Shown: in pieces, positions 59,895 to 64,000 of the stretch
Layout: each line of letters opens with the position of its first letter
Numbering within the stretch: position 1 is the stretch's first letter
From: an uncultured Spirochaetota bacterium
GTDB taxonomy: Bacteria > Spirochaetota > Brevinematia > Brevinematales > JAOACQ01
Direction: 5' to 3'
Assembly: GCA_963783575.1 (NCBI GenBank)
Contig: CAWAOD010000011.1
Coordinates: 64,001 to 128,000 of the forward strand
Length of the DNA stretch: 64,000 nt
Made by a program: the position numbers and the translations under genes
Notes under the pieces: model-generated
Told to the model about the DNA's origin: nothing
Databases searched by the model: none
What the model saw: the letters and a program-made list of their open reading frames with translations, nothing else

Positions 59895-60524
59895 TCATCT
59901 TTTACCGATGATTTTACCGGGGTTGCCGGCAACTGTTGAATTGGAGGGCACATCTTTTGTTACAATTGATCCGGCTCCAATTATTGAGTATTCTCCCAGT
60001 GTTACAGAGACCAGTATTTTGGCACCGGCTCCGATGACCGTATGGCTGCCTACTGTCGGATGACGTTTTCCTGCCAGTATTCCGCCTTTGCTCCCAAGAG
60101 TAACCTGATGGAAAATCAGCACATCCTCTCCGATTTCAGCCGTTTCACCTATCACCACACCGTTTCCATGGTCAATAAAAAATCCACCGCCTATTTTTGC
60201 TCCCGGGTGGATTTCAATTCCAGTTAAAAACCGGGATAATTGTGAAATTATTCTTGGAATCAAAGGAATTTCTAAACTATTTAAAAAATAAGCAATCCTG
60301 TGGAAAAAAACAGCCCAGATTCCGGCATAGGTTGCCAATTCGAGAAAACTAAGGATTTTTCCCCTTAAAGCAGGGTCTTTTTTGTAGGCGGCTGCTATGT
60401 CTGAAAATATGTAACCCAATTGGCCGAATCCGAATTTCAATCTCTCAAAATATCCGTTTTTAGCTGATTGCAAGACTTTTTTAGTTGAGTAAAAGGTGCA
60501 GCAATTTAAAGAACTATCATTCAT
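59895..60524 (-). CDS. cysE: Serine O-acetyltransferase
   Basis: [25 protein letters not shown]. Confidence 0.9.
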
Positions 60525-60564
60525 AAAACTCTCCTATGTAATTTGTCAAGTTTTATTTTAAGAT

Positions 60565-61575
60565 TCAAGCCTCAGATTTCAGATTCAACAACTTATAATA
60601 TACTTCCACAATAATTTTTCTCGCTACTGCAATGATCGCTTTTTGTTTTCCTCTTCTTGTTCGAATATTCTCATAAAACGATTTCATTTCTTTATCATAT
60701 CTCACACGAACCCAGGCTGCTTGTACTATGACCCTTAAAAAAGCACCGTCTACTTTTCGTGTAATTTGACCATTTGTTCCTTTTCCGTCACTTTCACTAA
60801 CTCTTGGTGCTAATCCCATATATGATACAAATTTTTTTGAGGTACTAAAGCGGTCTATATTGCCTACCTTCGTTATGATGTATGCGCCGGTTGTTGTGCC
60901 TATTCCCGTTAATTCTTTAATCTCATTATATCCGGGTCTCTTTATGCTTAAGGCTTCTGTTTCTTTATCCAGTACCTTAATGTCTTCTTTGAGATTTTCT
61001 AACATAACATACATCTGGATTACGGCTCTCTTTATACTCTCAGGTATGTTTTGTTCTTTGACCCAGTTTGTGTTCTTTTCAAAATTGTTGAACATTTTGT
61101 CTCCGGTTTTAATCCCCCAATACTCCATCATCGCTATTATCTTTGTCTTATAGCTTTTCTTATTGCTAACCATTTCTTCCCTCACAGATAATAATCCTCT
61201 TATTTCAGCGTCTTCGTCGCTTCTTATCTGACAGGTACTTAGCTCTTCTTTTTCAAATCTTTGTAATATAATCGCCATTCTTTCTGCATCTTCCTTGTCT
61301 GTTTTTTTAAATCGATCCATTAATCTTTTTAAATCAATAGTATTGAAAATAACCGCATCTTTTGCTTTATCTTTTAACCGTTTGATTAAATCCCATGTCC
61401 AGTTTGTCGATTCAATCCTGATTATCGTTTCTTTGTCAATCTCTTTCTCAAATTCCGCTAATTCTTTTTAATTTCTCTCATATTGCTTGATTGATTTTTT
61501 ACCGTTTTCTATAATAATGCAAACGGTAATTTGCTTTTTGTGGATATCAATTCCGATCCACTTTTTTGCGTCCAT
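60565..61575 (-). pseudogene. IS110 recombinase with an in-frame TAA at codon 36 (61468-61470)
   Basis: MDAKKWIGIDIHK…IEST…KTDKEDA…GIG…YMGLAP..SES; GGGAGG RBS. Confidence 0.88.
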
Positions 61576-61631
61576 CGTTTTCCTCCCTAATTTATTTGGG
61601 AGGCCTGAATCTTTTAGTGGTATATTAATCC

Positions 61632-61796
61632 GGTTGAAAAATTACCATACTCCAATACGAGGTTTATCCTCAAAATGGTGGTTCGGACAAGGATTCGATC
61701 ATACTCCTAACGGGGTTTATCCCCACAAATTGATTCGATCTTTGTCCTATTCAGAGCCCTCATCTATTTTGATGCGGGCTCTTTTATTTTTCAACC
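61632..61796 (+). ncRNA. Putative bridge/seek RNA of the IS110 element
   Basis: Two homologous stem-internal loop-hairpin arms, a third hairpin, and an 11-bp closing stem GGTTGAAAAAT/ATTTTTCAACC. Confidence 0.68.
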
Positions 61797-61836
61797 TTTT
61801 TTATCATACCACCTCCTCTAATTTTTATTCATATTG

Positions 61837-62832
61837 TCAAAACCCCAGCAAATTAAGTACATCTTTTTCCGGGTGACGGTTTATTCCCTGATAAGGGTAA
61901 CAATGGATATGAAGCGCCGGGTTGAAATTCAGTTCTATTACGGCATAATTATTTTCATCGGGTTTTTCATTGATGTCCCTGATTATTATATCCGCTCCGC
62001 AGATTATAGCTCTAACGGCTTTTGTCGCTTTTAACGCAATTTCCTTGTACTCTTCCCGAATTTTATCAGTAAAATCGATACTGTCCCCTCCGGTGCTGAT
62101 ATTGGAATTATTTCTTAAAAAAACCTGTTCATTTTTGTCCGGAACTGTAAGGATGCTTTTTCCCTGATTCTTAATAAAATCTTTTTCAACCCTGCCGAGC
62201 CTAATCTTTTCCAGCGGTGTTTTATATCCTTTTCCCCTGAGAGGATTGCTGTTTTTAATGACGGCCAGTTCTTTAATATTATGAACACCGTCGCCTGTAA
62301 CATTTGCCGGTACCCTGTGAAGAATACCGGGAACTTTTTCTCCGATTACAAGGAACCTGTATTCCCTTCCCGGTATATATTCTTCCGCAATCACCGATGA
62401 GTCATTTTTGAATGCATTTTCTAGTCCTTTATGATATTCTTCAAATGAAAATCCCTTCTTTAAAATGTTTACACCGATTCCAAAGTTTGTTTTATTGGGT
62501 TTAATGACAATTTCCATATTTCTGAAAAATTCAAAATCCTTTAATGCCTTTTTCAGGGTTGTATATAATTTTCCATGAGGAACCCTGACGCTATTTTCCT
62601 CCAAAATTTTCTTTGTAACATATTTATTTTCCATAATCAAAGGAACTATATAAGAATCCGCTGAAGTTCTTGTTGCCTGTTTTACATATTCGGTTTTTGT
62701 CCCTTTGGTCAACCGGATAAAATTATCTTCTGCATCCAGGATTTCCGTTTCAATATTCCTGCTAATAGCTTCCCTGATAAGAACCTGCGTCGACAGCTCA
62801 AGGTTACGAAATTTTTTTTCGAGTGTATTCAT
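61837..62832 (-). CDS. ATP-grasp glutathione synthetase domain (C-terminal half of GshF/GshAB)
   Basis: LELSTQ, EYVKQAT, KPNKTNFG, NSNISTGGDSID, ELNFNP; GGAG upstream of ATG 62832. Confidence 0.85.
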   Translation of the reverse strand: MNTLEKKFRNLELSTQVLIREAISRNIETEILDAEDNFIRLTKGTKTEYVKQATRTSADSYIVPLIMENKYVTKKILEENSVRVPHGKLYTTLKKALKDFEFFRNMEIVIKPNKTNFGIGVNILKKGFSFEEYHKGLENAFKNDSSVIAEEYIPGREYRFLVIGEKVPGILHRVPANVTGDGVHNIKELAVIKNSNPLRGKGYKTPLEKIRLGRVEKDFIKNQGKSILTVPDKNEQVFLRNNSNISTGGDSIDFTDKIREEYKEIALKATKAVRAIICGADIIIRDINEKPDENNYAVIELNFNPALHIHCYPYQGINRHPEKDVLNLLGF

Positions 62833-64000
62833 AATCCACTCCATTCATAAAAGATTTTGCCAGCCTGGTGCCGAAATCGGCATGAGATTCATTATTAAGG
62901 GTCATTTCTTTAACAATCCTTGAGGATGGAAGGAGCGTTTTGTCATGAATTTTTAATTTCTGGGATAAGATGATGTTCAAAAACCTGTTTGAGTCATTAT
63001 TACTGTCAAGTAAATCTGCAACAAGTATCATCCTGGTAAGTATTTCTTCGGCCCAATCGGTCAAACCGGCTTTAATCCCATTGTCTTTTATAAGCTCAAT
63101 CCCGTTTTTCCTTCCATAAAGGGCCGTCAATTCATCATTTTCTTTGATTATCTTCAAATCTCCGCCGGATAAATAGCCGCTTTCCATAAACAAGCAATAA
63201 AGAAGAAACATGTGATAAAAATAGAGCTGATCAAGACTTATACCCTCCCGGTAAAACGGGTTCAAATCGACAGATCGAATTTCTATATAGCTGACACCGC
63301 CGGATTTGAGATTATCCAGATGGGACTCACCTTTATGAGCTGCCGATTTAATCCTGACCGGGGAATAAAACTCGCTTTCTTTCTGTAAAACATGAGGGTT
63401 CAGCTGGATCTGCCTGCCTCCTCTGCAAACGCCGATTTTTTTATATTCTTTAGAATCGGTAATTAATGATTTTTCCAGATCCTCGGTATATTCATCCAGG
63501 CTGTTATACGATACTCTAACTTCTTCCTGCTTGCCCGATGAATATCCGAAACTGCTCATTCTTAAAGAAGCTGTGAAATATTTGAGATTTTGAATTTTTT
63601 TGAATCCGCCCGGAATATCAATAAAACTTATATCAGCGGTAGGCGATGCTCCGAAAAGATAAATCAAAAGCCAGCGGTAGCGGAGAAAATTCCTCGCGAT
63701 AGAAAAATAGCTTTTATCAATGAAAACTTGTCTCTCAATACCCGGATTTAAGGCATCAATTAAAAAATCCCAGAACTCGCCGGGGAAAGAAAAATTATAA
63801 TGAATCCCGGAAATCATCTGCATTTTTTTCCCATATCGCAGTGACAAACCGTTTCTGTATATTTCGTTTATTCTGCCCTGTGCTGTTCCGTTAAACTTTG
63901 CTATGGGTATTTTATCCTTATCCGGCAGATGCGGCGGCATACTGAGAGGCCATAGGAATTCTCCGTCAAGATTTTCCAGAATAAAGCCCTGTATTTCACT
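62804..64000 (-). CDS. gshA: Glutamate--cysteine ligase (N-terminal half of GshF), 5'-partial
   Basis: WPLSMPP, YGKKMQMISGIHYNFS, SLRMS, ESEFYSPVR, YIEIRSVDLNPF. Confidence 0.9.
   Translation of the reverse strand, partial: SEIQGFILENLDGEFLWPLSMPPHLPDKDKIPIAKFNGTAQGRINEIYRNGLSLRYGKKMQMISGIHYNFSFPGEFWDFLIDALNPGIERQVFIDKSYFSIARNFLRYRWLLIYLFGASPTADISFIDIPGGFKKIQNLKYFTASLRMSSFGYSSGKQEEVRVSYNSLDEYTEDLEKSLITDSKEYKKIGVCRGGRQIQLNPHVLQKESEFYSPVRIKSAAHKGESHLDNLKSGGVSYIEIRSVDLNPFYREGISLDQLYFYHMFLLYCLFMESGYLSGGDLKIIKENDELTALYGRKNGIELIKDNGIKAGLTDWAEEILTRMILVADLLDSNNDSNRFLNIILSQKLKIHDKTLLPSSRIVKEMTLNNESHADFGTRLAKSFMNGVDYEYTRKKIS

Follow-up and report, generated by a model that had tools for sequence, protein, structure and literature searches.

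An IS110-family element from a Brevinematia-type lineage with a bridge-RNA-like guide region, probably read from the recombinase strand

The RNA that guides the insertion sequence IS621 is reported to consist, in order, of a 5' stem-loop, a target loop and a donor loop, with the 3' ends of its guides placed at the core (PMC11208160, PMC11208158) and with a U and a G flanking each internal hairpin (U59/G72 and U132/G155; PMC11208158). In the seekRNAs described for the IS1111 elements ISEc11, ISKpn4 and ISPa11, the complement of the top strand lies 5' of the complement of the bottom strand (Siddiquee 2024, PMC11187229), while ISEc21, which is of the IS110 type, has an upstream non-coding region and a transposase-strand seekRNA validated by RNA co-purification (PMC11187229). 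A promoter formed at the circle junction has been reported for IS621, ISEc11 and ISEc21 (PMC11208158, PMC11187229). Here we describe a related element in a stretch of 64,000 nucleotides (nt) from an uncultured Spirochaetota bacterium of the order Brevinematales (positions 64,001 to 128,000 of contig CAWAOD010000011.1, assembly GCA_963783575.1; hereafter the window), in which an initial annotation had flagged 200 bases as a bridge-RNA-like RNA transcribed antisense to its recombinase. This region is probably the bridge (seek) RNA gene of an IS110-family element, with its guide RNA made from the recombinase (minus) strand.

Compared with IS621 as described in the reports above, the element is alike in having a DEDD plus Tnp recombinase, an RNA region in the long left end upstream of the gene, the same order of modules, loops built of stem, guide, hairpin, guide and stem, a guide for left flank plus core that would pair with the bottom strand, a U and a G beside the internal hairpins, and a predicted junction promoter. 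Unlike IS621, its long bottom-strand guide stands 3' rather than 5' of the internal hairpin, its core is AGGAG (GGAG in the homologue L041) rather than CT, the whole RNA lies inside a closing stem, right-side guides are not clear, and in the window's subfamily the wobble pairs favour the other strand; the initial annotation was right to call this a variant architecture. IS1111 seekRNAs, in the published examples, share with it a bottom-strand complement on the 3' side of the hairpin, although a convincing top-strand complement was not found here, and IS1111 elements share a transposase-strand RNA (probable in the present element), a junction promoter (predicted here) and the lack of target duplication beyond the shared bases. 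In IS1111, however, the non-coding region is described as downstream of the gene and the ends as carrying subterminal inverted repeats of 11-13 base pairs (bp; with 7-bp and 3-bp extensions), whereas here the RNA is upstream and the repeats at the element ends amount to a 4-nt CATA/TATG pair, with no 11-13-bp subterminal repeat among the 25 longest of 43 inverted repeats. ISEc21 has the bottom-strand match 5' of the top-strand match, the reverse of the guide order found here. Judged by its sequence, the element belongs to the IS110/IS1111 superfamily and fails one defining feature of each subtype, because it combines an apparent IS1111 guide order with an IS110-like upstream RNA that lacks the 11-13-bp subterminal repeats. 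This mixed arrangement may already be catalogued elsewhere, given that the non-coding region is, according to Siddiquee et al., exceptionally placed in some elements (PMC11187229) and that a 2026 preprint presents 86 bridge-RNA models with deviating structures; the portions of this literature that we drew on contain no description of the mixed arrangement or of an antisense bridge RNA, and the supplementary covariance models of the surveys may include the RNA.

The element occupies window positions 60536-61817 (1.28 kb), its recombinase gene lies on the minus strand, and the flagged bases form part of a long upstream non-coding end of 237 nt (61576-61812), against 29 nt downstream of the gene. 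On an intact copy (L002) both IS110 domains are recognized (PF01548, 4.9e-16; PF02371, 3e-19), and these, together with a conserved two-loop fold, bear out the proposal that this is the guide-RNA region of an IS110 DEDD recombinase. To the IS621 and ISCro4 enzymes of solved structure the protein shows no more than a remote relationship (E ~2e-7, limited to the C-terminal half), and its best plasmid-borne relatives (ISLin1 and others) are ~26% identical. The genome holds six copies of the element, which the search returned as seven matches with one copy split in two. Two of the six are intact (L002 and L004; G000:C16 and C9), the window copy carries the nonsense codon previously noted for it, another has a TAG stop, and the last two share an 11-bp deletion, one of them being additionally interrupted by an rve-type transposase gene. 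The insert in this interrupted copy (L006/L007; G000:C12:18644-22473) measures ~2.5 kb and encodes a protein of at least 461 amino acids, in which an rve integrase core is recognized (1.8e-08); a Mu-transposase C-terminal domain also matches, more weakly and below threshold.

When the five full copies were aligned, homology was bounded at both ends by CTCCT (AGGAG on the recombinase strand). All five copies sit 5-6 nt upstream of a host ATG and are co-directional with that gene; the element therefore targets AGGAG Shine-Dalgarno sites and rebuilds one at its right end. Insertion is site- and orientation-specific, with no duplication beyond the short shared core, in these five copies and alike in eight copies of ISg25, a member of a more distant family introduced below. 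Targeting of translation initiation signals has been reported for the IS900 group of the IS110 family (Doran 1997, cited in PMC8141618). At the window locus, the right-end core copy serves as the Shine-Dalgarno sequence of the downstream host gene (ATG at 60524), an open reading frame (ORF) at 59895-60524 on the minus strand that belongs to the hexapeptide transferase (acetyltransferase) family. The insertion point of IS900 separates a ribosome-binding site from its start codon, and the IS900 transposase gene is antiparallel to that of the host, unlike the present element, which is co-directional with its host gene and rebuilds AGGAG at the right end. As a separate observation, a T directly precedes the host ATG in 16 of 17 target sites (L013-L027 plus the window family), (A)TTATG being common.

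Relatives were collected in several ways. Protein searches of related genomes gave three homologues at 46-50% identity, and a two-motif DNA pattern run over metagenome contigs gave six stretches, four of which were kept and two (L042 and L043) dropped as unrelated; a protein-pattern scan of genome contigs found a single locus, a motif scan of viral contigs gave nine matches that were all unrelated, and two further viral scans gave none. The resulting set comprises eight sequences, the window's lineage included, from some five to six lineages, and conservation of the RNA region extends to all of them. A protein collection contains ~27 further relatives at 45-88% identity. The left-end motif GGAG(A/G)TGGTATGAT, present in seven of the eight homologues (L039 has GATGATATGAT), matched in 21 of 401 genomes of the phylum, and among 30 loci examined 12 were element ends by eye and 18 were ordinary Shine-Dalgarno-plus-ATG gene starts or unrelated. 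Three sister elements from two more distant families (ISg25, ISg30b and ISg22b) all carry this left end, and their RNAs are collinear with that of the window element: they share the start of the first stem-loop (SL1), the AGAUAGG before the big stem and the CCGAA after it, and GGAUAGGAG occurs in the second loop of ISg25 and ISg30b, as in the window subfamily. The recombinase of ISg25, present in at least eight copies, is ~27% identical to ours. A right end with TTGACA was read in ISg25 and ISg22b, while the contig of ISg30b stops before it; of the three, ISg25 is the one for which an AGGAG target could be read, and ISg22b lies at a different sequence.

The RNA region itself is strongly structured. 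Over 245 nt its fold has z-scores of -8.6 (plus) and -9.0 (minus), none of 200 shuffles folding as well, and among the eight homologues 14 of the 46-47 consensus pairs are compensated on both sides, whichever strand is considered. These compensated pairs mark the closing stem, SL1, the 17-nt stem of arm 2, the short stem of arm 1 and the two small hairpins as real helices (Table 1), and all the motifs, arms and stems of the initial annotation, as well as its hairpin with a T-tract, are found in the sequence. Rfam gave no family match (only P31 at chance level, E 8.2), nor did a BLAST search of the RNA region against plasmids and phages give any match. In an RNA from the recombinase strand, the segment 61786-61796 would form the 5' strand of the closing stem and 61632-61642 its 3' strand (the reverse on the plus strand), and the transcript start expected from the junction promoter, judged by position relative to the -10 box, falls just upstream of the former.

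Table 1. Coordinates of the element and its RNA region in the window (+, plus strand; -, recombinase strand).
Feature	Position	Strand	Remarks
Shared core copy, right end	60531-60535	-	CTCCT on +, AGGAG on recombinase strand; from alignment of 5 copies
Short right end (RE)	60536-60564	-	Recombinase strand ...cTTGACAaattACAT; TTGACA at + 60544-60549; ACAT plus core = left-donor sequence
Recombinase gene, 336 codons	60565-61575	-	TAA at codon 36 (61468-61470) in window copy
14-nt inverted repeat	60560-60573 / 61600-61613		93% complementary; 24 and ~200 nt from element ends
Leader	61576-61613	-	Hairpin CCUCCC...GGGAGG, predicted on both strands, conserved in homologues
TGgTATATT	61618-61626, within 61617-61628		Arm complementary to left-end -10 region 61801-61812
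Closing stem H0, perfect 11 bp	61632-61642 with 61786-61796		11/11 pairs; covaries in homologues
Arm 1	61646-61677		CATACTCCAATAC / GAGGtttatCCTC / AAAATG (+)
Loop B (arm 1)	61646-61677	-	ACCA, CAUUUU, hairpin GAGG-AUAAA-CCUC, long guide GUAUUGGAGUA, UGGU; ACCA/UGGU = stem, CAUUUU = short side
17-nt stem H2 around arm 2	61685-61701 with 61731-61747		
Loop A (arm 2)	61685-61747	-	GGACAAAGAUCGAAUCA, AUUUGU, hairpin GGGG-AUAAA-CCCC, long guide GUUAGGAGUA, UGAUCGAAUCCUUGUCC; AUUUGU = short side
Arm 2	61700-61732		CATACTCCTAAC / GGGGtttatCCCC / ACAAATTG (+)
Stem-loop SL1	61753-61764 with 61771-61782	-	5' stem-loop of recombinase-strand RNA
Mini-ORF	61784-61807	-	ATG ATA AAA AAG GTT GAA AAA TAA (MIKKVEK)
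Left end (LE)	61803-61812	-	GTGG-TATGAT; TATGAT = -10 with TG extension; also right-donor sequence
Shared core copy, left end	61813-61817	-	CTCCT on +, AGGAG on recombinase strand; from alignment

That the loops carry guides was evident once homologues at different sites were compared. On the recombinase strand the long guide (flank plus core) lies 3' of the internal hairpin in all eight homologues and in the three sister elements. In loop A this guide tracks the left flank of its own element, reading TCAAGGAG in L012, TAAGGAG in L011, ATAGGAG in L040 and AAAGGAG in ISg25, and in L041 it reads TTGGAG, with the flank of that element likewise carrying a T instead of an A. Over nine elements, the mean run of identity before GGAG is 2.33 against the element's own flank and 1.21 against the flanks of other elements. 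The long guide of loop B is AUAGGAG in most elements and equals the right end ...ACAT-AGGAG; measured against the right end, its run before GGAG is 3 nt in five of the seven elements whose right end is known, and 0 in L002 and L038, where a U stands opposite the A of the right end (AUUGGAG, a single mismatch). Since loop A follows the left flank and loop B the right end, arm 2 would be the target loop and arm 1 the donor loop, which reverses the roles originally given to them. From the window by itself they can hardly be distinguished, since TAGGAG is compatible both with the right end and with some targets. One argument for arm 2 as donor loop, the complementarity of ACAAATT (61725-61731) to AATTTGT near the element end (60540-60546), is present in the window but absent from L010, L011 and L012 (the only relatives checked), and the match overlaps the -35 hexamer TTGACA. 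The target guide matches only a short stretch, 5-8 nt including the core, which fits the many different Shine-Dalgarno sites used. The earlier proposal that the guides are readable is upheld for the long guides, no convincing short ones having been found.

Several features bear on which strand is transcribed. If the element ends are joined, they form TTGACA, a spacer of 17 nt and TGgTATGAT, reading towards the recombinase, which is predicted to be a circle-junction promoter; by eye, TTGAnn, 17 nt and TATGAT recur across the joined ends in six of the seven subfamily elements with a readable right end and in ISg25. Read on the recombinase strand, the modules come in the order 5' stem-loop, target loop, donor loop. 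On this strand, too, each long guide is identical to left flank plus core, so that a recombinase-strand RNA paired to the bottom strand would meet the core with its 3' end, and the guide order would be that reported for IS1111 seekRNAs; a plus-strand RNA would instead pair with its 5' end at the core, as in no described member. The sister elements also fold better on the recombinase strand, with -52.2 against -36.7 kcal/mol and 8 against 2 G-U pairs in ISg25, -61.8 against -46.6 kcal/mol and 12 against 3 in ISg30b, and -80.8 against -70.3 kcal/mol and 7 against 5 in ISg22b, and because the RNAs are collinear and no inversion is present, a switch of strand between the subfamily and its sisters is implausible. 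A U and a G flank both internal hairpins on the recombinase strand in 16 of 16 cases (UG:8 at columns 88/103 and 146/161), and the closest pair of sequences, L002 and L038, differ in their helices by only two substitutions, both of which are kept as G-U on the recombinase strand alone. On the opposite strand no conserved promoter is found: a TTGAGA/TTGGGA and AT-rich pair at 17-nt spacing occurs in three of the eight homologues only. The extended -10 motif TGgTATATT, proposed as the promoter of an antisense RNA, does exist, but only in L002 and L038, where it forms the complementary arm of the element's own -10 region, and a scan of the window did not call it. We consider it likely, on these grounds, that a functional guide RNA is read from the recombinase strand.

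A number of findings nonetheless weigh against this strand, and the foremost remains the plus-strand wobble signal of the window subfamily, which conflicts with the evidence above. When the helices were aligned irrespective of strand, 327 positions were Watson-Crick, 37 paired as G-U on the plus strand alone, 8 did so on the recombinase strand alone and 8 were of other kinds. Some 11 of the 37 lie in a central U.G/C.C/G.U motif and are explicable by a shifted register with two bulged A's, a register that finds support in L012, where U-A replaces C-G. At position 7 of the big target-loop stem all eight sequences have A.C on the minus and G.U on the plus strand, and at position 3 four of the eight do, three of them with intact recombinases. 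Consensus folding energies favour the plus strand (-41.38 against -31.65 kcal/mol, and -54.7 against -38.9 in a separate script), as do seven of the eight single sequences when the guide loops are held open (sums -532.1 against -470.0), and among 1x1 mismatches in the minimum free energy (MFE) folds, A.C accounts for 14 of 23 on the recombinase strand and for none of eight on the plus strand. On the plus strand, moreover, SL1 is followed by TTTATTTTT (61783-61791) and resembles an intrinsic terminator. This hairpin with its A-rich/U-rich tract is conserved in all eight homologues and occurs in ISg25, not in ISg30b or ISg22b; a simple promoter and terminator scan recognized it as a terminator in L067, on the strand opposite the recombinase, and gave no such call in the window. 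The long guide stands 3' of the internal hairpin, unlike those of IS621 and ISEc21, and no convincing short (top-strand) guides were found on the short sides of the loops in the homologues or in ISg25, where candidates like the match of AUCAUUU to AAATGAT (L010) are rich in A and T, run into stem sequence and vary in their spacing to the ATG. Finally, the homologue set is small, and the recombinases of L010 and L039 carry stops.

How far such energies can be trusted was gauged on ISEc21 (L079), whose RNA has an MFE of -54.6 kcal/mol on its true strand against -59.9 for the complement, while its G-U pairs (8 against 2) pick the true strand. Folding energy alone is thus an unreliable test of strand, since a validated RNA folds 5 kcal/mol worse than its complement. 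Unconstrained MFE was accordingly set aside, being near-neutral here (-556.6 against -565.7, summed) and wrong for ISEc21, and an evaluation of mirrored structures was discarded as invalid because it left non-standard pairs unpenalised. The original statement that the stems pair through G-U only on the plus strand is not confirmed in that form: the bias is real at the level of the family, whereas the window's own minus strand folds at least as well without constraint (-88.1 against -85.2 kcal/mol) and the shifted register removes some of the pairs.

The alternative that best survives these results is one in which both strands are used: the guide would be read from the minus strand, and a structured RNA from the plus strand, ~150-165 nt long and terminating at the hairpin and U-tract, would act as an antisense regulator. 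Antisense RNAs act in other insertion sequences, for instance RNA-OUT of IS10. Such an arrangement would reconcile the promoter, guide polarity and sister families with the plus-strand wobbles at positions 3 and 7 and with the terminator-like hairpin, and candidate promoters for it can be pointed out in TTGAGA, 17 nt, TTTTAT/TATTAT (L010, L039 and L041) and in TGgTATATT (L002 and L038). However, no plus-strand promoter is conserved, the spacing being 17 nt in three of the eight and 15 or 19 nt elsewhere, and in most homologues these -10 boxes would place the start within the closing stem. ISg30b and ISg22b are without the U-tract, and selection acting on both strands would be expected to yield Watson-Crick pairs rather than A.C on the strand of the guide. 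We therefore regard this alternative as unlikely, and equally so that an antisense RNA of this kind would regulate the bridge RNA or the recombinase leader. The broader proposition, that the subfamily makes some structured opposite-strand RNA over the whole bridge-RNA module, be it an antisense regulator or, less likely, the guide, has a somewhat better though still doubtful standing.

Considerably less probable is the arrangement first proposed, in which the guide itself would come from the plus strand, divergent from the recombinase, with a promoter near 61618 and an end at the hairpin/U-tract terminator of 61753-61791. The excess of G-U pairs (37 against 8), the consensus energy, the open-loop energy in seven of eight sequences and the conserved hairpin with its terminator call in L067 all agree with it; the long loop side would then lie 5' of the internal hairpin, as in IS621, and in the window's lineage TGgTATATT would put the start at the closing stem. 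But the sister elements, collinear and with the same left end and the same GGAUAGGAG guide, lose 10-15 kcal/mol when folded on that strand, where they would have 7-12 A.C mismatches, so that a change of strand without inversion would have to be assumed; the guide would have its 5' end at the core, in a polarity opposite to that of IS621, the modules would run from donor loop through target loop to a 3' hairpin, the promoter motif is found in two of eight sequences only, and the MFE comparison taken alone misleads, as ISEc21 shows. An RNA antisense to the recombinase is probably the wrong reading of this locus, the recombinase strand being indicated alike by the promoter, the order of the modules, the polarity of the guides and the sister families. 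Least credible of all is that the fold is a mere leader controlling translation of the recombinase or stability of its transcript, with the AGGAG loops as copies of the ends that have no guide function, for although the Shine-Dalgarno-sequestering hairpin and the 14-nt repeat that brackets the gene indicate a partly regulatory leader and no short top-strand guides were found, the loops follow their own flank and right end, including the TTGGAG variant of L041 and the different target of ISg22b, and the non-coding region encodes the guide in every IS110/IS1111 element tested in the studies cited here.

If the guide is indeed made from the recombinase strand, the following cycle can be envisaged. 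Excision would join the ends as ...TTGACAaattACAT-AGGAG-GTGGTATGAT..., and the promoter thus created, with its TTGACA from the right end and its TGgTATGAT from the left, would drive both the RNA and the recombinase. Transcription of the guide RNA would begin immediately past the left-end -10 box and proceed towards the recombinase gene, giving an RNA that comprises one half of the closing stem, the 5' stem-loop, loop A, loop B (61646-61677) and the other half of the closing stem, and the recombinase would be expressed through a leader whose CCUCCC...GGGAGG hairpin is predicted to sequester its Shine-Dalgarno sequence and so the ribosome-binding site. In the recombinase-RNA complex, loop A would pair with an AGGAG site, while loop B, the 3' side of which equals right end plus core, would pair with the donor, that is with the junction (...ACAT-AGGAG-GTGG...), and strands would be exchanged within GGAG. 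The product would be flank-AGGAG-element-AGGAG-N5-6-ATG, co-directional with the host gene, with a ribosome-binding site rebuilt at the right end.

Two further loci bear on the behaviour of elements of this group. In G030:C5 (~1500-1640) a truncated copy of the L011 type (L055) retains the left end and what follows as far as the first hairpin of loop A, which is included, and breaks exactly after the loop's own TTAAGGAG, to be followed by host GATAATATG; it looks like a case of self-targeting, in which recombination would have taken place between the DNA copy of the guide and the right end. A miniature element of ~150 nt (L054, in G027:C21) consists of the left-end motif GGAGATGGTATGAT and ~130 nt without a recombinase, and ends ...CTCATAGGAG before the host ATG.

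The left end also imitates the start of a gene (61784-61817, minus strand, and likewise in L010-L012, L038-L041, L069 and L070), with AGGAG, 5 nt and an ATG. This ATG lies inside the -10 hexamer, 5 nt past the AGGAG core, and opens the mini-ORF of Table 1; an equivalent mini-ORF of 5-12 codons begins at the matching ATG in nine of ten elements, the exception being L039, in which AGGAG and ATG are 6 nt apart. Its stop falls in the A-rich linker before the first hairpin in seven of the ten and inside the closing stem in two. Ribosomes engaged on host read-through transcripts would cover the closing stem.

Other observations concern the leader and its surroundings. The 14-nt inverted repeat brackets the recombinase gene, one arm lying in the leader just upstream of the ribosome-binding-site hairpin and the other over the last codons and the stop; in the window's copy a single pair departs from Watson-Crick pairing and forms G.U when read on the recombinase strand, and a compensating form of the repeat is present in L010 (UAUUUUCAAGCC / GGCUUGAAAAUA). 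A second promoter-like pair on the recombinase strand (61766-61794), with TTGAAA in the closing stem, 17 nt and nAAAAT in the SL1 loop, recurs in several homologues (L067 1018-1046; L069 1525-1554), the number of such hits not being above that in shuffles. A complementarity of 19 nt (74%) between the recombinase codons for GIDIHK (61537-61555) and the small hairpin of loop A (61711-61729) may be due to chance. As for the genomic setting, the element lies between the acetyltransferase gene described above (59895-60524) and a split GshF-like pair (61837-64000), made up of a glutamate-cysteine ligase gene and an overlapping ATP-grasp gene, and is probably inserted within one thiol-metabolism operon.

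The Brevinematia-type lineage described here joins an upstream RNA with an apparent IS1111 guide order, a closing stem around the RNA and very short guides directed at the Shine-Dalgarno sequence. Recombinases that use bridge or seek RNAs are under development as programmable genome-writing tools, and natural variants such as this one show what an RNA scaffold can tolerate. Should a plus-strand RNA exist, it would explain why positions 3 and 7 of the stem are G-U on the plus strand only, would be the first functional RNA of the IS110 family that is antisense to its guide module, and would add antisense control to this family; should there be none, the locus would serve as a warning that an asymmetry of G-U and A.C pairs, and folding energy as well, can indicate the wrong strand for RNAs that are bound by protein.

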